Source of the DNA: Escherichia phage vB_EcoM_LNA4
Sequence record: MZ311864.1
Direction: 5' to 3' (one strand)
Length of the DNA: 64,000 nt
The position numbers and the translations under genes were made by a program. How positions within the stretch are numbered: position 1 is the stretch's first letter; each line of letters begins with the position of its first letter. A model generated the notes under the pieces. It was not told where the DNA came from, ran no database searches, and was given only the letters and a program-made list of their open reading frames with translations. Of the stretch, positions 37,153-55,163 are shown piece by piece.

Positions 37153-37206
37153 TTATTTCTCCTCTCTGTCTTGATAGGGGTCATTATACAGACCCCTTAT
37201 TCATTG

Positions 37207-37896
37207 TCAAGCAATAATTTTCGGACTTTCGAAAGTGCTTGGCTTCATGATCTTGCCATTGTTGTCGAAGAACACAAGGCGCGGATCTGTCGAGCTAGGG
37301 TCTTTGGCATTATACACCTTATGGCATCTAACACCAGAGTAACGACCATTAGACCTGTCCTCAATTGCTTTGCACTCCAGACGAAGAGCTTCATTATGCT
37401 CTTTATCAGGCCATAGGGCAAGAACATCCTGAAGATACGGATACTTCGTATCGTTAGAGTGTAAAACCTGCTGCATGTTGTAGTCAAGATTAATATCAAG
37501 ACGATAGCACAATGCAGTCACCAGCTTCAGTACATAAACAGGATCTTGCATGTTGCCATACAGGTTGTGTTCAAGATCACCAATGGTAAACGTCAATGTT
37601 GGTGAAGGAGTACAAGCCTCACGAAGATACTCAGGGCTTTTCAACTGACAAGCATATGAGGCCACAACAAAGAGATCACAGGCAGCATCAATAGTTTCAA
37701 TGCGATCTCCAACACGGAGTGCATCAACAAGTTCGTTGAATTCTTCGCGAATAAAGCCCCATTGCAGATCAAATGGTGTTGCTACATTGTTCCGAGCACG
37801 ATATGCAACATGGTTCCATTCAATCACATGCTCCGCGTATGCGTACAGATCTGATGGTTTTGTCATCGCTAAAAGTGTTTCGTAAACCTTACTCAT
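37207..37896 (-). CDS. hypothetical protein, possible MazG-like NTP pyrophosphohydrolase
   Basis: IREEFNELVDAL...ETIDAACDLFVV resembles the EExxE...D motif of all-alpha NTP-PPases; weak. Confidence 0.3.
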   Translation of the reverse strand: MSKVYETLLAMTKPSDLYAYAEHVIEWNHVAYRARNNVATPFDLQWGFIREEFNELVDALRVGDRIETIDAACDLFVVASYACQLKSPEYLREACTPSPTLTFTIGDLEHNLYGNMQDPVYVLKLVTALCYRLDINLDYNMQQVLHSNDTKYPYLQDVLALWPDKEHNEALRLECKAIEDRSNGRYSGVRCHKVYNAKDPSSTDPRLVFFDNNGKIMKPSTFESPKIIA

Positions 37897-37905
37897 TGAT
37901 TCTCC

Positions 37906-38277
37906 TTAATTAATTACATCTGTTGCGTGATCACCTTCCGGTTGGTCACGAATAATTCTTAATGGCAAAAGAGCGCCGTTCTTAGCTACGAACAGGCATT
38001 TGTCGCCATATGTCCCATTCTTGTACCAAGAATAAGAAGTGTTAACCTTGTAGGCCATGCCGTCGAATTGACAGGTCATGGTGTTCCACAACGGTTTGGT
38101 AAGGGCCAGCGTTACCAGGCCCAACACAACAGCCCAAATCAACAGCATACGTTTCACCTTTCCCTGAATCCAGTCAATGAAATCGTCAAGCTTGTCTTTC
38201 CGGAAACGGTAGGCGATATAAATACCGCCCCCGGTTAACAGTGTTGCTCCAAAGAGCGCCAGCCAATACCAGATCAT
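37906..38277 (-). CDS. membrane protein
   Basis: N-terminal hydrophobic helices; 123 aa. Confidence 0.35.
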   Translation of the reverse strand: MIWYWLALFGATLLTGGGIYIAYRFRKDKLDDFIDWIQGKVKRMLLIWAVVLGLVTLALTKPLWNTMTCQFDGMAYKVNTSYSWYKNGTYGDKCLFVAKNGALLPLRIIRDQPEGDHATDVIN

Positions 38278-38723
38278 TATGCACGTACCTCTGTTACCTT
38301 CACGGTTGCTTCACCGCGAAGCTGGATGTTAGAACCATCATCGAGAGTGAGAATGATATCGTCGCCACTGATTTTGTGACCCTTAACGACATAATCTTTA
38401 CCCCACATCTCTACCTTATCGCCCATCACGACATTTTTCGCCTTGTAATCACCAGGCAGGCGATCTTCATCGCTAACCGCTTCGTAAAGGTCGCTAAAAG
38501 CCTGTGGAGACATTGCTGTGAACTGATCGCCCACCTTTACAATGTAATCGCCTGGAAACGCCTGAACGCCGTTAACGTCCATATTTCGGATATCCCGTGT
38601 ATGGATCTCAGAATCTTTCCATACCCCGGTCTCGATCCACTTGGTCACTTGACCAACCCCGGTGCTAGACCCATTGAATACGTGTGCTTCAACCTCTTGA
38701 GGTTTACGACTATAGAATCCCAT
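38277..38723 (-). CDS. hypothetical protein
   Basis: Start at MGFYSRK; TAATG overlap with ligase gene. Confidence 0.35.
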   Translation of the reverse strand: MGFYSRKPQEVEAHVFNGSSTGVGQVTKWIETGVWKDSEIHTRDIRNMDVNGVQAFPGDYIVKVGDQFTAMSPQAFSDLYEAVSDEDRLPGDYKAKNVVMGDKVEMWGKDYVVKGHKISGDDIILTLDDGSNIQLRGEATVKVTEVRA

Positions 38724-40027
38724 TAGTAGACTGGCTCCCATGTTAATGTGTTAAGTTCACGTACACTCTGCCCCACTGGGAACTGAGGTACACCATCATC
38801 AGTACGCGACTGGAATGTAAAGTTGATGAAACCACCAACCAACAGCAACATCTTCGCCTGAGAACGTTCTGCGTGTGTGCCTTTCATTTTACAGTTGAAT
38901 CGTGTTCCGTCCTGTTCTTCGCAAAGCAGAACACCTTCACCATTTTTGTCCTCTACAGAATCAAGGACTTTGGCCTCACCGTCCTGGAACAGCTTCCATT
39001 TCTGGAGATCAGTGGATCGCTGCCCGAACTCATATTTACCTTTGAAGTTTCGGATGATAACACCCTCAAACCCGGCTTCCATGTAATAACCGATAAAGCG
39101 TTTCACAGATGCTTCGTCTTTCACGAACTCGCCATGAACGATAGCAATCTTAGGAACATCAATCTCACATTCTACAGCTTCAGCCACAGCATTAAGATCA
39201 GCCATACGGGTTTGATCATGATCCTGAGAGTGCCAAGGACTGTGTGCATTCACTGGAATATCAAAGATATGATACTCAAGGTCAAGACTCGAATAACCGC
39301 TATAACGATCAACATCCTTCACAGGTTTATACGTTGAAACAGCCCACACGTTACCGTCAAAGTCTTTCCAGAGGTGTTCCCCTGCTGCAACCGCCTTGTT
39401 GTAACGCTTGATATCTGCTTGATAATCTTTTTCGATCTCAGCTTCAATCTGCTCAGGTGTACGCCACTTCTTAGCGAGAGCAACAATCTTCTGTAGACTC
39501 AGGCCATGAATATACAGTTCCCCATCGAACTTGTCAAACCCGGAATGCTCTGCAAGTTCTTTAACCTGTTGCAAAAGAGCACCCTGCACTGGATACGTCT
39601 TATTACCACGGCTATTGAACACTGGAATGCCGTCCTTGTCAAGCGTGACAAGAGCACGAACGCCGTCGAGCTTTGGCTGCACATAGGCAGGATAAACGAT
39701 AGCTGAAAATCGTTTGATCGCATCATGCGCCAGCATAGGAGAGAAGTTCTCTTCCGTCTGCAACTCTTCCTTAGTCTCACGATAACCTAAACGGACTTGC
39801 TTTTCCCATTTGGATCTTGCTTCAAGAACCGCTTGGAATACGGCAGTAGTCTCATTGGAACGGCCAATGTTTTTCATTTCACACTTGGTACGCTTTTGTT
39901 GAATCTTTCCGTTTTCCTTACCGAAAGAAACGACAACCTCATCACCTTCTGTGGTTACATTCCAAACTTGGTACGATCCGTCTTTGTTGAGAGCGTACAG
40001 TGTTGGTGTGTCTAAACTAATTGACAT
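38723..40027 (-). CDS. ATP-dependent DNA ligase
   Basis: Motif I KLDGVRAL, motif III FDGELY, motif IV EGVIIRN; 434 aa. Confidence 0.85.
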   Translation of the reverse strand: MSISLDTPTLYALNKDGSYQVWNVTTEGDEVVVSFGKENGKIQQKRTKCEMKNIGRSNETTAVFQAVLEARSKWEKQVRLGYRETKEELQTEENFSPMLAHDAIKRFSAIVYPAYVQPKLDGVRALVTLDKDGIPVFNSRGNKTYPVQGALLQQVKELAEHSGFDKFDGELYIHGLSLQKIVALAKKWRTPEQIEAEIEKDYQADIKRYNKAVAAGEHLWKDFDGNVWAVSTYKPVKDVDRYSGYSSLDLEYHIFDIPVNAHSPWHSQDHDQTRMADLNAVAEAVECEIDVPKIAIVHGEFVKDEASVKRFIGYYMEAGFEGVIIRNFKGKYEFGQRSTDLQKWKLFQDGEAKVLDSVEDKNGEGVLLCEEQDGTRFNCKMKGTHAERSQAKMLLLVGGFINFTFQSRTDDGVPQFPVGQSVRELNTLTWEPVY

Positions 40028-40803
40028 TATTTCTCCTTCTTCTGTAAAGGCGTTTTTCCTTCAAGGTGGTCTTCAACCATCTTGATTAAACCGGGATTGC
40101 TGAAAGCATCAACAGCACCTGTACGATAAACGATAACACCCGCATCTTCATACATCAACTGCTCATCATAGCGAACACCGGGGTTAACAACCACCACCTT
40201 TGTTCCTCTCATGACAGCAGGGAAAAGTTCCCAGTTGAAGTTGATCACTGTGTTTGAACATCCAACCACAATCACCATATCCTCAGATGTCAAGCTGTCC
40301 AAGGTTGAGTATAGCTGCCCGTATGCAGGCGCAGTTTCACCAAAAAAGATAACGTTAGGCTTACACCAACCATAATCATCTGGGTCAATCTGCTCATAAC
40401 CAACATCAATGATCTTTTTAGGTGATCCAGCCTCAGTCTCAATCACCAACTCTTTCAGATAACCATGAATATAAAGCGTATCTTCTTTAGGAACACCTGC
40501 ACGTTCCAATAGATCATCAACGTTAGTTGTCAAGTTAATAACCTGGTTCGGATAGTTTTTATACCACTCTGCCACACGCATATGTGCAGCATTAGGATGC
40601 ACAGTTTGCAGTTCTGCACGACGCTTGTTATAAAAGGTGTGCGTCTTATGGTAAAAATTACCACGAAAGGCATGAATGTTGCAGACCTCTTCAAGGTCAT
40701 ACTCATCCCACAAGGCCTTACCGGAGTCGGTGTCAGTACGGAATGTACGAACACCGCTCTCAGCAGAGAAACCAGCACCACTAATTACATATAAACGCCT
40801 CAT
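40027..40803 (-). CDS. Sir2-family NAD-dependent deacylase/NAD-utilising enzyme
   Basis: GAGFSAESGVRTFR, TTNVDDLLERAG, IHGYL and VIFFGE sirtuin motifs; no obvious Zn-ribbon Cys4. Confidence 0.75.
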   Translation of the reverse strand: MRRLYVISGAGFSAESGVRTFRTDTDSGKALWDEYDLEEVCNIHAFRGNFYHKTHTFYNKRRAELQTVHPNAAHMRVAEWYKNYPNQVINLTTNVDDLLERAGVPKEDTLYIHGYLKELVIETEAGSPKKIIDVGYEQIDPDDYGWCKPNVIFFGETAPAYGQLYSTLDSLTSEDMVIVVGCSNTVINFNWELFPAVMRGTKVVVVNPGVRYDEQLMYEDAGVIVYRTGAVDAFSNPGLIKMVEDHLEGKTPLQKKEK

Positions 40804-41018
40804 GGATTAACCACCTCGCTAATAGCCCTCATTGCCCCATTATGGCCTTGGCAACGCTCATCAATACCTTTCATGTAGCAAATTTTACTTGCAACACGAT
40901 AGTTAGCGAACTGCCAAGCCTGCCATGCTGCTGTTTTCGCAGCGGGTTCTTCCCACGGGTGGGCGAGAGAGTTCCACCAATTTTCGAACTCAACCCACTG
41001 CATGTTTTCTTTGTTCAT
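40800..41018 (-). CDS. hypothetical protein
   Basis: 72-aa Trp-rich ORF. Confidence 0.35.
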   Translation of the reverse strand: MNKENMQWVEFENWWNSLAHPWEEPAAKTAAWQAWQFANYRVASKICYMKGIDERCQGHNGAMRAISEVVNP

Positions 41019-41024
41019 TATTCC

Positions 41025-41909
41025 TCACTGTAATTTCAATGAGTTACGCAGACGACGCTCTTGAGCATCACGGGTTTCCTGCGGAACGCTGTGAATAGAA
41101 TCATTGCCATGACGGTTCTCTACCACCAAGCTAATGACGCGATACCCATTCTCGGCTGCGAGGTCGAGGTATGGTTTCAGTTCTTTTTCACTGGTAGAGG
41201 TGTTAGACACGATGATCCTACGGAAATTCCAACCCATCATGTCCTTAACTTCTGACTGGCACCATGTGTGTGCCGCCTGAATATTCTCAGGTTTCCAGTC
41301 ATAAACACCATCTTCCGTATAGTGGAATTTATCTGCTTCACAGACAGGCCACAAACCCTCTGACAGCATCTTTCCCGTTGTCATATTACGAGCACCAATC
41401 AGATACGCACCAGGTTGTTCGTGAACTATATGCGGGTCAGAATCATCACAAATTTCAAACATTAAAGTCAAACAAGATTGCCCTACATGTGTCCACATGG
41501 ATGGGTGGTTTGCCTTTTCAACACCACTCAAAATATGAGTTTTTGCAATATCTGCAAATTCGGAATCAAGAGTTCCGGTGGTGGATACTAAAACATCGCC
41601 TTTATAAATTGAGGCCGCTGCCATAAAGCCATTAACTTTACGAGGTACACACACCAACTGGTCTCGTGGAACATCGGTATTATTCTCGAAGCGGTTGAAA
41701 ATCTTCGTGAAAGGCCAGATAACAACGTTGTCTTCTGCATCAACAACCATGCCACGGCACTCCAGAAGACGTGCGTCTGTGTGCCACAGGTTATCCCAGA
41801 ACACATTGTTCTTATATTTCAGAACAGACAGACCCGCGAACGGGCCTTCGGTATAAGTCTTTTTGGTTACAAGCTTTTTAGCAACAAGGTCATCTACGTT
41901 AAATTTCAT
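41025..41909 (-). CDS. hypothetical protein
   Basis: 294-aa ORF; contains RKVNG but motif order does not fit a ligase. Confidence 0.45.
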   Translation of the reverse strand: MKFNVDDLVAKKLVTKKTYTEGPFAGLSVLKYKNNVFWDNLWHTDARLLECRGMVVDAEDNVVIWPFTKIFNRFENNTDVPRDQLVCVPRKVNGFMAAASIYKGDVLVSTTGTLDSEFADIAKTHILSGVEKANHPSMWTHVGQSCLTLMFEICDDSDPHIVHEQPGAYLIGARNMTTGKMLSEGLWPVCEADKFHYTEDGVYDWKPENIQAAHTWCQSEVKDMMGWNFRRIIVSNTSTSEKELKPYLDLAAENGYRVISLVVENRHGNDSIHSVPQETRDAQERRLRNSLKLQ

Positions 41910-41918
41910 TTGTGTCCC

Positions 41919-42095
41919 CTACTTTTTCTTGAAGAATGACTGGATTATACATGCCTCACGGCGGCTGTCAATACTTTGTTCTGGCATTGATGCCGCTGTT
42001 ACAAGTTTAGCAACATCGCGCTTGTCGATGGAGCCATACGCACCAGAATCCATCATGAAGAAAATCTTATCTTGGGTAATTTTATGAACTTTCAT
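41919..42095 (-). CDS. hypothetical protein (58 aa)
   Basis: Hand translation MKVHKITQDKIFF...; AGAGAGGA RBS. Confidence 0.3.
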   Translation of the reverse strand: MKVHKITQDKIFFMMDSGAYGSIDKRDVAKLVTAASMPEQSIDSRREACIIQSFFKKK

Positions 42096-42474: not shown

Positions 42475-43071
42475 TTATCCGTGATCAGCAGTGTAAATTG
42501 GTTTAGCAAGGCACATCAGAACAGCTTCACGCATCGTCAAAGGACGACCATGCACATCCCAACCCACATCAAGAATACGTCCACCAGGGGCCGTGTAGGA
42601 GCCGTGGCTGTGACCGTGCAGCATTACCGACCCGTGGTGAGCTTTATTCCATGATGCAAACGGATAGTGGGACATACACACCTTCACCTTTTCTTTCCCG
42701 GTGCTGAACTCAATTTCCTTATAGTCCACGACTTCATGACCAAACTCACGGAAGATACGTTTTGTCTGATGGTTGTCATGATTACCACCAACCAGAATGA
42801 TCTTCCCATTGATACGGCTCAGGATATCACGAACTTTTGGCTCAACTTGCTTACCATAGGCAATAACGAAATCACCAAGGTGTGCCACCACATCGTCAGG
42901 CTTGACGTTTTTGTTCCACGTCTTAACCATGTCATCGTTCATTTTGACAACGGAGGCTGAGTCTTCTTTCGGACCATACAGGTTCTTACGGAACTTATCA
43001 CACGATGGGAAACCAAGAATGTTGGTGTGCCACCAGTGAGTGTCTGACGTGACGTGATCAATTTGAATCAT
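42475..43071 (-). CDS. calcineurin-like metallophosphoesterase (Ser/Thr phosphatase-like)
   Basis: GDFVIAYG, GGNHD and GHSHG metal-binding motifs. Confidence 0.7.
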   Translation of the reverse strand: MIQIDHVTSDTHWWHTNILGFPSCDKFRKNLYGPKEDSASVVKMNDDMVKTWNKNVKPDDVVAHLGDFVIAYGKQVEPKVRDILSRINGKIILVGGNHDNHQTKRIFREFGHEVVDYKEIEFSTGKEKVKVCMSHYPFASWNKAHHGSVMLHGHSHGSYTAPGGRILDVGWDVHGRPLTMREAVLMCLAKPIYTADHG

Positions 43072-44358: not shown

Positions 44359-44676
44359 ATGGGGTACATCGCGTCAGGTAAGCACATCTACGGTAACTTC
44401 GAACTGAAGTTGCTGTCGGTGACCTGCGCCTCGTCCAACGACAAGATTGTGTACCTCTACATGCGTCATCAGTATCACTACTTCAAGTCTCTCCGGAAAA
44501 CGTACCATGAGTCGCTTGACAGTATTGCTGATGCCACAGGATTATCGAGGGCAACTGTTGCCAGGTGTGTGAGCAACCTTGAAAAGATAAAGTGGTTGAC
44601 AAAGGACACAACACGCACCAATATGGGCCACAACAAAACGATTTACGAAATTCACAATTGGACAGAGGAGAAATAA
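44359..44676 (+). CDS. helix-turn-helix DNA-binding protein
   Basis: SIADATGLSRATVARCVSNLE HTH segment; GGAGGA RBS. Confidence 0.5.
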   Translation: MGYIASGKHIYGNFELKLLSVTCASSNDKIVYLYMRHQYHYFKSLRKTYHESLDSIADATGLSRATVARCVSNLEKIKWLTKDTTRTNMGHNKTIYEIHNWTEEK

Positions 44677-44677
44677 A

Positions 44678-45490
44678 ATGAGTATTGAATTACGTTTGAA
44701 CAAACTGGTTGTTCCTGTAGACCACTTCACCTTTAAGGGTGGTGAGGAACAGGTCAAAATTGACCTAAAACACGCACCAAAAGGCGGTATTGGTTTCGTA
44801 GATATCACTGCCAAAATCAAAAATTCAACTGATGTCATGGCACTGGCTATGTTGGTGGATGCGTGTTCCCGTTTGGAAGGATTGCATAACCACGCAGAGT
44901 TCACCCTGCACCTTCCATACATCCCGTATGCACGTCAAGACCGTGTAATGAACCCAGGTGAAGCGTTATCTATTAAGGTTTTCGCAAACATTGTCAACTC
45001 GCTTGGTTTCGACACGGTTATCGTTGATGACCCGCACAGCGATGTCTCTGCTGCACTGCTCAATAACGTCCGTATCCGTGGTCAGGATGTTCTTATTTCC
45101 GAGATGAAAGATCTTGGCAACTCCACATTGCATAGCAACTCTTTGGTTGTGGTAGCACCTGATGCGGGTGCTCGCAAGAAAGCCCATAAGGTTGCTGACC
45201 GATTCAGTCTTCCTCTTGTTGAGGCTGGTAAAGTACGTGATTTGCAGACCAACGAAATCACTGGTACTGCGGTGTTCGGAGATGTTGAAGGTAAAGTGTG
45301 TATGATTGTTGATGATATCTGCGACGGTGGTCGTACATTCATCGCCCTTGCACAGGCCCTGAAAGAAAACGGTGCGAAACGTGTTATCCTGTACGTTACT
45401 CACGGTATCTTTTCTTTCGGTAAACAGGTCATCCTCGATGGTGGGGTTGATGAAATCTATGCGTATCATGACTGGACGGAGAATTTTTAA
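44678..45490 (+). CDS. prs: ribose-phosphate pyrophosphokinase-family protein (Prs-like)
   Basis: YARQDR, DDPHSD and PRPP-binding loop VDDICDGGRT motifs; 270 aa. Confidence 0.75.
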   Translation: MSIELRLNKLVVPVDHFTFKGGEEQVKIDLKHAPKGGIGFVDITAKIKNSTDVMALAMLVDACSRLEGLHNHAEFTLHLPYIPYARQDRVMNPGEALSIKVFANIVNSLGFDTVIVDDPHSDVSAALLNNVRIRGQDVLISEMKDLGNSTLHSNSLVVVAPDAGARKKAHKVADRFSLPLVEAGKVRDLQTNEITGTAVFGDVEGKVCMIVDDICDGGRTFIALAQALKENGAKRVILYVTHGIFSFGKQVILDGGVDEIYAYHDWTENF

Positions 45491-46023
45491 TGACTGAATC
45501 AACAAGTTTTATTTTTGTTGTCGATACAGATTCCTATGCTGGTAATTTTGAGCGTGACATGTGCGCTCATATCACCGGGCAGATTGGTGAATGCGGTGTT
45601 GGTGCAGAGTACCGCCCCGATATTGAAGACCTAAAAGAAGACCATTACGATTTTGATCTCGAAAAAATCTGTGAGTGGTTAGAAAATAATGTTCTCCAGG
45701 TTCCAGATGAACACGCCTGCTATCGCCCATGTGCGATTTACCCAACACCGGGGCGTACAAACAACGGCGGTGGTGTGCATTCTGATGTGACCGCAAATAA
45801 TCCATTCAAGTGGCCTGCATACGAAAGTGTAGCTATCTACATCCGTGAAGAACCACCTGAAGATGTGGTACGTTTCATGGTCATCCGTGCTAACACTTTC
45901 TATATTCGTGCGACCAAGTGGTCACCAGCAAAAGAAATCAAGGTAAAAGGTTGCAGATTGGTTAAAGAAACGACAACTGTGAAAACAGAATCGAAATCTT
46001 TAGACTTTTCACTTGACATCTAA
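45490..46023 (+). CDS. hypothetical protein within NAD operon
   Basis: 177-aa ORF with ATGA overlap to Prs-like gene; Cys/His-containing, no recognisable motif. Confidence 0.5.
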   Translation: MTESTSFIFVVDTDSYAGNFERDMCAHITGQIGECGVGAEYRPDIEDLKEDHYDFDLEKICEWLENNVLQVPDEHACYRPCAIYPTPGRTNNGGGVHSDVTANNPFKWPAYESVAIYIREEPPEDVVRFMVIRANTFYIRATKWSPAKEIKVKGCRLVKETTTVKTESKSLDFSLDI

Positions 46024-54284: not shown

Positions 54285-54313
54285 TTGCAAAAGATTGTTT
54301 TCACTGATAAAGT
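54285..54313 (+). promoter_or_regulatory. sigma70-like promoter
   Basis: TTGCAA, 17-bp spacer, TAAAGT upstream of tRNA at 54322. Confidence 0.3.
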
Positions 54314-54321
54314 AATTACAT

Positions 54322-54410
54322 GGTTCTTTGACCGAGAGGCCGATGGTAGCAGGCTGTTAACCTGCCTGGAGTAATCCACGACGAAGGTTCGAATCCTTCA
54401 GGAACCGCCA
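54322..54410 (+). tRNA. tRNA with GTT anticodon (Asn) and long variable arm
   Basis: Canonical loop CTGTTAA on GCAGG/CCTGC stem, 17-nt variable arm with TGGA/TCCA stem, T-arm GAAGGTTCGAATCCTTC, G73, CCA. Confidence 0.6.
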
Positions 54411-54443
54411 AATTAGGTGATACGCTACCTTAAGTGCGAACTT

Positions 54444-54520
54444 GAAAATTAATGGGGCCGTGGCTGACAAGGTAATGGTGCCGCACTGTCTATGCGGAAA
54501 ATGAGGGTTCGATCCCCTTC
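54444..54520 (+). tRNA. tRNA-Asp (GTC)
   Basis: Loop CTGTCTA on CCGCA/TGCGG stem, T-arm GAGGGTTCGATCCCCTT, CCA. Confidence 0.6.
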
Positions 54521-54713
54521 GGTCTCGCCAATTTGATATGTTGATGTAAATTGCCGGAAGGCACTCAAAATGAGTTCGACATATCAAACCAAATACGCTC
54601 TTGCAGGAAAGGTTAGCCTCCCTGCAATGTCACACTAGGTGATCAGAGCGGATCAAATTAGCTAGCCAGCGATACCAGTTGCAGTGTCTGGGACAATTAA
54701 AATTCTGCACCTT

Positions 54714-54791
54714 CGGAGCGTAGCGCAGTCTGGTCAGCGTGGGAGCCTTGGATGCTCTGGGTCGCAGGTTCGAATCCTGCCGCTCCGACCA
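54714..54791 (+). tRNA. tRNA-Pro (TGG)
   Basis: Loop CTTGGAT, T-arm GCAGGTTCGAATCCTGC, CCA. Confidence 0.8.
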
Positions 54792-54796
54792 ATTTA

Positions 54797-54872
54797 GCAG
54801 GTATAGTTCAACTGGACAGAGCATCAGTTTACGAAGCTGAGAATCGGGGTTCGAATCCCTGTATCTGCACCA
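54797..54872 (+). tRNA. tRNA-Arg (ACG)
   Basis: Loop TTACGAA, T-arm CGGGGTTCGAATCCCTG, CCA. Confidence 0.8.
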
Positions 54873-54907
54873 AATTAAGGCTTGGATTTCTTCGGACCCA
54901 AGCGCAC

Positions 54908-54984
54908 GGGCGATTGATGGAATTGGTATACGTGTCGGATTTAGATTCCGAATTTTGGGGGTTCGAGTCCCCTGTCGCCCACCA
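54908..54984 (+). tRNA. tRNA-Leu (TAG), short variable arm
   Basis: Loop TTTAGAT on TCGGA/TCCGA stem, A73, T-arm GGGGGTTCGAGTCCCCT, CCA; no long variable arm. Confidence 0.6.
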
Positions 54985-54991
54985 ATCCTTC

Positions 54992-55067
54992 GGGACTGTA
55001 GCTCAGTTGGTAGAGCACCTGATTGAAGATCAGGGTGTCGGTGGTTCGAATCCACTCGGTCCCGCCA
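54992..55067 (+). tRNA. tRNA-Phe (GAA)
   Basis: Loop TTGAAGA on CCTGA/TCAGG stem, T-arm GGTGGTTCGAATCCACT, CCA. Confidence 0.8.
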
Positions 55068-55073
55068 AATAAT

Positions 55074-55146
55074 TGCGAGCTAGAATTCTGGTGAATTCAC
55101 GAGTCTCATAAGCTTGTTCAGAGGGGTTCGATTCCGCTGCTCGCAA
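55074..55146 (+). tRNA. tRNA with CAT anticodon (Met or Ile2), no encoded CCA
   Basis: Perfect acceptor TGCGAGC/GCTCGCA, loop CTCATAA, T-loop TTCGATT; 3' end lacks CCA. Confidence 0.6.
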
Positions 55147-55163
55147 CTAACAGAGGACTTAAT

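Follow-up and report, generated by a model that had tools for sequence, protein, structure and literature searches.

The 64,000-nucleotide window considered here, which is the whole stretch of DNA analyzed from Escherichia phage vB_EcoM_LNA4 (MZ311864.1), encodes at 40027..40803 (−) a 258-residue protein of the Sir2 family that we tentatively read as an NAD+-dependent lysine deacylase, a zinc-less derivative of class III sirtuins such as CobB, Sir2Af1 and SIRT5; judged from its sequence and predicted structure, we put the probability of this reading at about 0.45. The reading draws on the best database matches of the protein, its predicted fold, the retention of catalytic and tunnel residues and of a Tyr/Arg pair, its acidity, and its persistence where neighboring RNA-repair partners have been lost. 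Among the activities listed in an earlier, sequence-only reading of the region (deacylase, ADP-ribosyltransferase and NADase), these features favor a deacylase over a defense-type NADase.

The (+) strand translation of 40027-40803 is broken by many stops, and the open reading frame (ORF) reads on the (−) strand; its assignment to the phage sirtuin clade phrog_2162 is supported by the ORF list, by Pfam, PHROG and CobB matches, by an AlphaFold2 (AF2) model and by the ratio of nonsynonymous to synonymous substitution rates (dN/dS). The ORF matches the Pfam SIR2 family (PF02146) at E = 1e-21 and 78.2 bits (gathering threshold 24) over profile positions 1-178 of 180, phrog_2162 'Sir2 (NAD-dependent deacetylase)' at E = 9e-110 (residues 1-254 on profile positions 10-276 of 277), and Escherichia coli CobB (1S5P) at E = 5e-19, all far beyond chance and in agreement with the family proposed in the sequence-only reading. 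Sir2Af1, Sir2Af2 and SIRT5 match at about 1e-12 to 1e-14, with ~27-33% identity to class III sirtuins, and all seven NCBIfam matches are to 'NAD-dependent protein deacylase' models, each below its cut-off. By these comparisons the ORF is a class III-type Sir2-domain protein and not a CobB equivalog. The dN/dS values against relatives (0.03-0.13) indicate strong purifying selection on the gene, which is real and intact but already catalogued, being annotated as Sir2 in many GenBank phage records; IMG/VR holds a 100% identical protein under the name 'NAD-dependent deacetylase'. The family is acidic (median isoelectric point 5.2, range 4.6-6.1), a property that resembles CobB and appears to suit protein substrates better than polyanionic ones.

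The structure was modeled with ColabFold/AF2 from a 70-sequence alignment. The model (predicted local distance difference test score, pLDDT, 90.2; predicted template modeling score, pTM, 0.88) confidently predicts a two-lobed sirtuin fold, in which the sole weakly predicted stretch is the cofactor-binding loop (residues 21-30). In a Foldseek search of the PDB, the top 50 matches listed were all CobB, Sir2Af1, Sir2Af2, SIRT5 or Sir2Tm, with CobB the best (template modeling score 0.83-0.86, E = 1e-19), and no defense-type SIR2 or SirTM structure was among them.

All three sirtuin motifs quoted in the sequence-only reading were found, each on the (−) strand. The NAD-binding motif GAGFSAESGVRTFR (residues 9-22; 40738..40779 (−), coordinates verified) contains the Rossmann GAG and the cofactor-loop pair Phe21-Arg22; within it G9, A10, G11, S16, G17, F21 and R22 are unchanged in the phage members and CobB, and S13 completes the GAGxS motif. 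The second, TTNVDDLLERAG (residues 92-103; 40495..40530 (−)), is the sirtuin TQN(I/V)D motif with its Gln replaced by Thr93 and with Asn94 and Asp96 of the nicotinamide pocket retained; both are invariant in the 70-sequence clade, and in the wider alignment Asn94 is invariant and Asp96 nearly so. The IHG motif (residues 112-114; 40462..40470 (−)) carries the catalytic His113, which aligns to CobB His147 and is invariant in all alignments. When a 36-residue segment around the motif was searched alone against the PDB, the only match was the class III deacylase Sir2Af1, through ITQNVDDLHERAG. The catalytic His and the NAD-binding residues, on which the sequence-only reading had staked its case, are retained both on alignment to CobB and in the confident fold prediction.

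Class III sirtuins recognize acidic acyl groups through a Tyr-x-x-Arg pair. Here the pair is Tyr58-x-x-Arg61, within FYNKRR (residues 57-62; 40618..40635 (−)), which aligns to CobB FYNARR; its counterparts are Y92/R95 in CobB and Y102/R105 in SIRT5. None of Y58, R61 and R62 varies in the 70-sequence clade alignment, and the YRR triad is present in 96 of 147 representatives of the wider family described below. Residues were compared in an alignment of phage members from seven genome types with the CobB segment of the 1S5P match, onto which CobB numbering was mapped (Y92, H147, V187, F190 and P221 all fit). Invariant between the phage members and CobB are the GAG, S16, G17, F21, R22, W32, F57, Y58, N59, R62, P70 and N71, followed by H74, T92, N94, E100, G103, H113, G114, P149, F154, E156, D175 and G181. 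The residues of the CobB acyl pocket translate to the phage protein as A76 to C41, Y92 to Y58, R95 to R61, I131 to V95, V187 to V151 and F190 to F154, so that the phage protein has a small residue, Cys41, at the position of CobB Ala76. The departures from CobB common to all phage members are Gln to Thr/Ala in TQN(I/V)D (position 93; 40525-40527), GTS to G(C/S/A)S (position 182; 40258-40260), V-Y-P to V-I-N, and the lack of Cys in the zinc columns. The Gln of TQN(I/V)D and the Thr of GTS are residues that contact NAD at its ribose or phosphate. Some members (phAPEC8, P0055, P0071, P0082 and P0114 in our alignment) have a 25-30-residue insertion, for example GYQQEQCVPGAVGGLDAEG, between residues 48 and 49, in the helical module by the cofactor-binding loop; neither the window protein nor its T5 homologue contains it.

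The observation that the usual Cys4 zinc ribbon is not evident was borne out. The whole protein contains three Cys (41, 147 and 182), the columns of the CobB zinc ligands hold no Cys in any phage member aligned, and 68 of 70 clade members have 0-1 Cys in the small-domain region. The ribbon is replaced by a small domain (residues 114-148; 40360..40464 (−)) of three beta-strands with a conserved D-V/I-G-Y motif; in the model, DSSP assigns strands at 114-122, 130-133 and 146-151 to the zinc-ribbon position, with pLDDT 93-96. The net charge of this domain, computed from sequence, is −5 in the window protein and −1 to −7 across the family.

The zinc-less clade was placed within its wider family by searching a profile against 1.84 billion representative proteins; 140 clusters scored at E ≤ 1e-30, and the number rose to 1,931 at E ≤ 1e-10. 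Co-variation was counted, with no correction for phylogeny, over 147 representatives (P0121-P0270) drawn from the best 150 clusters. Members without Gln93 are mostly zinc-less (43 against 13) and those with Gln93 mostly have the Cys4 site (82 against 9), an odds ratio of 30 uncorrected for kinship among the 147 representatives; the zinc-less members carry Thr, Ser or Ala in place of Gln at position 93. Position 182 is Thr in 81 of the 82 zinc-type members, and in the 43 zinc-less members it is Ser, Ala or Cys in 34 and Thr in 5. Cys41 and the small-domain I-G-Y motif occur in both groups. By its sequence, the phage clade seems to have branched off from within a zinc-containing family whose small domain is built in the same way. 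In longer zinc-type relatives (P0140, P0205, P0263 and P0268) the sirtuin is fused to a second Sir2, WG repeats, leucine-rich repeats or a LEM-3-like GIY-YIG nuclease; these fusions were considered as a clue to function and dropped, being heterogeneous and confined to zinc-type relatives.

If the protein is a deacylase, its substrates during infection would be NAD+ and an acyl-lysine on a protein of the host or the phage. Tyr58 and Arg61 suggest that the acyl group is acidic (succinyl or malonyl, for instance), with acetyl possible too, as in CobB. The acyl oxygen would attack C1' of the nicotinamide ribose and nicotinamide would leave, after which His113 would activate the ribose 2'-OH and the acyl group would be transferred onto ADP-ribose. 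Nicotinamide and the ADP-ribose released from O-acyl-ADP-ribose would be substrates of the NAD+ reconstitution pathway NARP1, the genes for which lie 4 kb away; with its products recyclable by its own NARP1, the phage could run sirtuin chemistry without draining NAD+. A deacylase of this kind would allow phages to rewrite host lysine acylation during infection, and the protein is kept at 55-60% identity across very different model phages (T5, rV5-like and phAPEC8-like).

The region around the gene is 93-94% identical in DNA sequence to Enterobacter phage EC152 and Cronobacter phage GAP31 (Vequintavirinae, Seunavirus), whose records are both annotated in this region, that of EC152 calling the gene a SIR2-family deacetylase. 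Homologues of the protein were found by tblastn in 997 phage records, with identities of 98% in EC152, 62% in T5, 62% in phAPEC8, 59% in 7-11 and 54-55% in rV5-like phages; more distant homologues occur in a KVP40-like Vibrio phage (42%) and the jumbo phage GAP32 (41%), for which a further comparison gave 38-41%. To survey the neighbors, 83 loci (76 from IMG/VR plus GenBank loci) were sorted into 27 lineages by 70% Sir2 identity and compared through BLAST clustering, iterated hidden Markov models and a Pfam scan run in batch. No universally linked partner gene emerged across these 83 loci, and the most widespread neighbor is PhoH (10 lineages), a common early gene. In lineages 1, 11, 13 and 15, genes for an Rnl1-type RNA ligase, a kinase, a phosphoesterase, MazG, cREC and DNA ligase lie within 3.3 kb of Sir2; a metallophosphoesterase gene lies ~0.9-3.1 kb away in 6 lineages and 6.6 kb away in a seventh; and a 607-kb contig has Rnl1 at 2.2 kb. 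The rV5-like phage JeffSchatz has the order phosphoesterase-polynucleotide kinase / Rnl1-cREC-Sir2-MazG...DNA ligase. In T5 the gene 0.3 kb downstream of Sir2, T5p103, encodes a phosphatase of the HAD_SAK_2 family ('Swiss Army Knife RNA repair'); T5p104 and T5p105 form a tandem of DUF7415 proteins, and T5p103-105 are all hypothetical in GenBank (locus L001, 8142-9481). The recurrent context of Sir2 is an RNA/DNA end-repair module (Rnl1, cREC, kinase, phosphoesterase, MazG), which the sequence-only reading had overlooked. All of the recurrent neighbors sit in early or nucleotide-metabolism blocks, where clustering is common.

A survey of viral NAD+-ADP-ribose systems (Iyer, Burroughs, Anantharaman and Aravind, 2022; PMC9503650) placed most viral sirtuins in one clade and described rV5/Mydo-type neighborhoods with a T4-like RNA ligase, cREC, a kinase, MazG and a calcineurin-like phosphoesterase, an SP15-type with a HAD 'Swiss army knife' phosphatase, and jumbo-phage types with 2H, Nudix-cREC and PIN genes; for this clade it proposed a KptA-like removal of RNA 2'-phosphates. 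On that proposal the sirtuin would ADP-ribosylate an RNA 2'-phosphate stemming from an opened 2',3'-cyclic end, freeing ADP-ribose-1'',2''-cyclic phosphate, and the neighboring ligase would restore tRNAs cut by host anticodon nucleases. We regard this as unlikely for the window protein, and the evidence divides as follows. The neighborhood types of section 3.7.3 of that survey were reproduced independently here (rV5-type, lineages 1, 11, 13 and 15, T5, GAP32 and the 607-kb contig), and in the relatives EC152, L009 (our label for a locus with Sir2 98% identical) and JeffSchatz the genes for RNA ligase, cREC and kinase linked to the sirtuin are intact. Acyl and 2'-phosphate transfer would be analogous, the oxygen of the group removed attacking C1'' of NAD+ and the ribose 2''-OH accepting the group; the conserved Tyr/Arg pair could bind phosphate; and an array of 22 tRNAs lies nearby. 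Against this, the argument is one of guilt by association alone, in early and nucleotide-metabolism blocks where unrelated genes cluster, the protein is acidic and its small domain, beside the substrate cleft, strongly negative, and the CobB-type lysine-tunnel residues are conserved. The linkage also fails in several lineages: phAPEC8-like and 7-11-like phages and several metagenomic lineages have neither end-processing nor NAD+ genes near Sir2, and KVP40-like phages, like the 7-11-like ones, have no Rnl1 nearby. In two phAPEC8-like IMG/VR contigs (L093 and L095), ~30 kb separate Sir2 from cREC, which is grouped with DNA ligase, MazG and NARP1-type genes, showing that the RNA-repair genes and Sir2 are not always one module. 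Viral loci with cREC and no adjacent Sir2 were also searched for KptA in its place, and no PTS_2-RNA domain was found in the 5 usable loci of 13, too few to weigh.

The window itself bears on this question, as its RNA-repair genes are disrupted. The chimeric 294-residue ORF that opens the Sir2 transcription unit (41025..41909 (−); identified from Pfam, a split PHROG match and alignments) aligns over residues 1-184 to the N-terminal part of the 303-306-residue Rnl1-type RNA ligases of relatives and ends before the EGF and KIKSPHY stretches (ligase motifs IV/V), with Pfam RNA_lig_T4_1 covering just positions 1-152 of 227. From about residue 185 (~110 residues) it continues as the C-terminal part of a 135-141-residue polynucleotide-kinase-like P-loop protein, without the GSGKST P-loop, and the joint falls in a shared ML(S/A)E microhomology. 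Relative to L009, ~1.0 kb is gone, including a 78-residue ORF and the 114-residue cREC gene. Separate Rnl1, cREC and kinase genes are kept in 12 of 12 other relatives with a locus covering the region, including L009 and EC152; the IMG/VR contig with the 100% identical Sir2 retains cREC, and its fetched pieces stop short of the Rnl1 region. The chimera may be a recent deletion or an assembly error. Of the type 2 RNA-repair set (PMC9503650), the window retains MazG and the phosphoesterase, with Rnl1 truncated, cREC deleted and the kinase without its P-loop. To judge from these sequences, the Rnl1 ligase, cREC and kinase are very probably inactive in this phage while Sir2 is intact and still under purifying selection. 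A recent deletion being possible, this lends modest support to the view that Sir2 can do without these genes; lineages such as the phAPEC8-like phages have Sir2 with no RNA-repair gene nearby. Zinc loss and RNA-repair neighbors have both been published previously; the ~1-kb deletion with Sir2 intact and the co-variation of zinc and NAD-pocket residues are new here.

Several points weigh against the deacylase reading. The NCBIfam scores fall far below their cut-offs (112 bits against 243 for NF001753, and 91 against 320 for the CobB equivalog model NF040867). The Cys4 site that stabilizes the substrate-binding lobe in CobB, SIRT5, Sir2Af1/2 and Sir2Tm is missing, and the altered NAD-pocket residues Thr93 and Cys182, changed throughout the zinc-less group, could signal a changed chemistry. 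Neighbors that process RNA ends or ADP-ribose occur in at least four unrelated genome types and are not obviously predicted by a general deacylase. Lastly, no biochemical or genetic test of any member of the phage clade was found in the literature. More broadly, it is rather improbable that the zinc-less clade is not a deacylase at all but the first sirtuin for nucleic-acid ends or ADP-ribose-derived small molecules, of which a Tpt1-like activity is one example; the zinc loss, Thr93 and the changes at position 182 would then mark a substrate switch. A Tpt1-like activity would be a chemistry new to sirtuins and would add an arm to phage counter-defense against tRNA-cutting systems.

The sequence-only reading had further noted that Sir2 coexists with NAD+ salvage genes and suggested that the phage manipulates NAD+, and both statements hold: Prs-like and Nampt-like genes lie 4-7 kb away on the opposite strand, and the pair is identified as the counter-defense pathway NARP1. 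The Prs-like gene (Adps) is at 44678-45490 (+) and was assigned by Pfam, and the Nampt-like gene (Namat) is at 46077-47762 (+), assigned by Pfam and by the structures 9W5X/9W5W. The Nampt-like protein is closest to these crystal structures of phage Namat (E = 3e-125, against about 1e-45 for canonical Nampts), which marks the pair as NARP1. NARP1 rebuilds NAD+ from ADP-ribose and nicotinamide and has been shown experimentally to counter NAD+-depleting defenses (10.1101/2024.02.11.579819). Between the two genes lies a 177-residue ORF, orf177 (45490-46023 (+)), with no Pfam match; it occupies the position taken in some phages by RyDEP, a glycosidase acting against Thoeris by destroying its cyclic ADP-ribose signals. 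An identification of orf177 as RyR/RyDEP was dropped for want of a Pfam match. A helix-turn-helix gene before Adps (44359-44676) has a sub-threshold match to 'wHTH-PRTase associated'. The 22-tRNA array follows the NARP1 genes at 49029-55147 (+), and EC152 and JeffSchatz have similar tRNA arrays near their Sir2/RNA-repair block.

This setting raises the alternative that the sirtuin is an NAD+ glycohydrolase, an ADP-ribosyltransferase or a small-molecule enzyme in a counter-defense neighborhood with NARP pathways, where it would ADP-ribosylate a host or defense protein or act on an NAD-derived metabolite or immune signal; we consider this quite unlikely. A Nampt-type gene is found no more than 10 kb from Sir2 in 7 of the 27 lineages, and these 7 represent three or more unrelated genome types; the gene is accompanied by Adps (NARP1-type) in lineages 1, 11, 15 and 16 and by NMNAT (NARP2-type) in lineages 7, 19 and 20. 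In GAP32 (locus L006, 6270-8664), a 2H protein is encoded directly upstream of Sir2 and a Nudt16-like Nudix-cREC fusion directly downstream, and NMNAT/Nudix and Nampt genes (NARP2-type) lie 3-5 kb upstream. The 2H neighbor is best matched as the anti-CBASS nuclease Acb1 (59 bits), above the generic 2H RNA-ligase family, a point that also counts against a role in RNA 2'-phosphate removal, and the GAP32 region looks like a counter-defense island as much as an RNA-repair module. Precedents include RyDEP, an extra NAD-signal enzyme within NARP1 operons, and the fact that certain sirtuins are ADP-ribosyltransferases (PMC9503650); Thr93, Cys182 and the loss of the zinc lobe could reflect a changed acceptor.

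The evidence from the protein itself points the other way. Profile and fold comparison returned matches of the CobB/SIRT5 type, with no PADLOC match to a SIR2 NADase and neither defense-type nor SirTM structures among the top 50 fold matches listed; a defense-type SIR2 was discarded as a candidate, PADLOC having given just a 12.6-bit, chance-level match to an unrelated candidate model. A likeness of TTNVD to a 'TTNYD' motif of NADase-type SIR2 proteins was likewise dropped as a clue after a full-text search for that motif came back empty. The operon ORFs include no macrodomain gene, and none is among the 25 most frequent neighbor Pfam families listed (23 lineages); the EVADES catalogue of 268 anti-defense proteins lists no phage Sir2; a free NADase would run counter to the phage's own investment in NARP1; and the conserved Tyr/Arg pair and lysine tunnel indicate an acyl-lysine substrate. 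NARP1 is also present in Bas63, an 87-kb Felixounavirus, with no Sir2 in the 22-kb region examined and no Felixounavirus among the Sir2 matches, so that co-occurrence need not mean a functional link. ADP-ribose pyrophosphate (ADPR-PP) was reported to be absent without a host NADase (10.1101/2024.02.11.579819). The use of these Bas63 metabolomics as an argument against a free NADase was dropped, as the data are uninformative about the window protein, Bas63 showing no Sir2 in the examined region. Taken on its sequence, a counter-defense enzyme is without positive support.

The adjacency of Sir2 to an ATP-dependent DNA ligase, stressed in the sequence-only reading, holds in this phage and is lineage-specific, T5, phAPEC8 and 7-11 having other neighbors. 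The ATG of the ligase gene (38723..40027 (−); PF01068 and PF14743, phrog_114) begins within the stop codon of Sir2 (TAATG) and is preceded by an AAGGAG Shine-Dalgarno sequence in the Sir2 3' end, and the two genes look translationally coupled and co-transcribed in an early-type operon with a host sigma-70 promoter. The transcription unit runs in the order 294-residue ORF, orf72, Sir2, DNA ligase, orf154, orf123 and MazG-like gene, all tightly packed or overlapping. Such coupling would also fit a catalytically decayed, structural or regulatory protein whose role is confined to binding NAD+ or a partner, for example the co-translated ligase. The lost zinc site and the substituted Gln and Thr of the NAD pocket are in keeping with decay, and a Sir2-like protein has been reported to interact with Ku/LigD in mycobacterial non-homologous end joining (PMC3102665). 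We consider this very improbable: His113, Asn94, Asp96, the GAG loop, Phe21/Arg22 and the FGE loop show no variation among phage lineages sharing only 38-60% identity, the dN/dS values given above signify constraint, and the ligase is a neighbor in particular lineages. The probability remaining beyond the deacylase, RNA 2'-phosphate, counter-defense and decayed-protein explanations belongs to something else.

Compared with known systems, the window protein is not itself different from other phage Sir2 proteins; what differs is its setting. T5p100 of T5, Sir2/CobB of KVP40 and the 'Sir2-like protein' of rV5, phAPEC8, GAP31 and EC152 belong to the same family (phrog_2162), and phage Sir2/CobB-like proteins share with it the single-domain size, the zinc-less small domain with D-I/V-G-Y and the T(T/A)NVD motif. 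Peculiar to this phage are the ligase overlap, the extra orf72, the Rnl1/kinase fusion-truncation and the removal of cREC. In 2016, the Sir2/CobB of KVP40-like phages was modeled on E. coli CobB, with the zinc ligand noted to be absent, and was argued to be a deacetylase from its sequence; transcript levels were reported, with no enzymology (PMC5107563). No experimental test of either the deacetylase or the RNA-repair proposal was found in the literature. With CobB (1S5P, 6RXJ), Sir2Af1 and SIRT5, which are its best matches, the protein shares the NAD motifs, catalytic His, FGE loop and Tyr-x-x-Arg, and it differs from them in having no Cys4, in the changes Gln to Thr, GTS to GCS and V-Y-P to V-I-N, and in its low NCBIfam scores. 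The RNA 2'-phosphotransferase KptA/Tpt1, its proposed work-alike (PMC9503650), resembles it in using NAD+ as ADP-ribose donor with release of nicotinamide and, in relatives of the window, in the placement of Sir2 among genes for RNA ligase, kinase and cyclic-phosphate processing; the sirtuin Rossmann fold differs from the KptA/ADP-ribosyltransferase-like fold, the phage protein is acidic, and the repair partners are disrupted in the window. The defense SIR2 NADases (ThsA, DSR1/2, SIR2-HerA and SPARSA) and SirTM share with it the Sir2 superfamily, NAD+ consumption and a place in phage-host conflict. Unlike them, it is a single-domain, phage-encoded protein in an early-type operon, with no HerA, SLOG or pAgo gene in that operon and no macrodomain gene. 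The window contributes small clues: RNA-repair partners naturally lost, coupling to a DNA ligase, and zinc loss that co-varies with two NAD-pocket residues.

The remaining features of the unit were located in the same region. It is headed by a sigma-70 consensus promoter, TTGACA-16-TATAAT, at 41944..41971 (−) (12/12 positions, a sequence match alone), and a second perfect consensus (12/12) lies after the MazG-like gene at 37183..37210 (−); promoter-like sites in the 36-48.5 kb region number 35, against 22.3 ± 4.3 in shuffles. The stop of orf72 (40800..41018 (−)) overlaps the Sir2 start (ATGA); it has no Pfam match and among close relatives adjoins Sir2 only in L008 and L009. Downstream of the ligase are orf154 (38277-38741 (−)) and orf123 (37906-38277 (−)), and the last gene encodes a MazG-like nucleotide pyrophosphohydrolase (37207..37896 (−); PRA-PH, 22.1 bits against a 21.3 cut-off), the rV5-type homologue of which matches the PHROG 'nucleotide pyrophosphohydrolase' family. 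Upstream of the unit, a calcineurin-like metallophosphoesterase is encoded at 42475..43071 (−) (PF00149, E = 4e-8).

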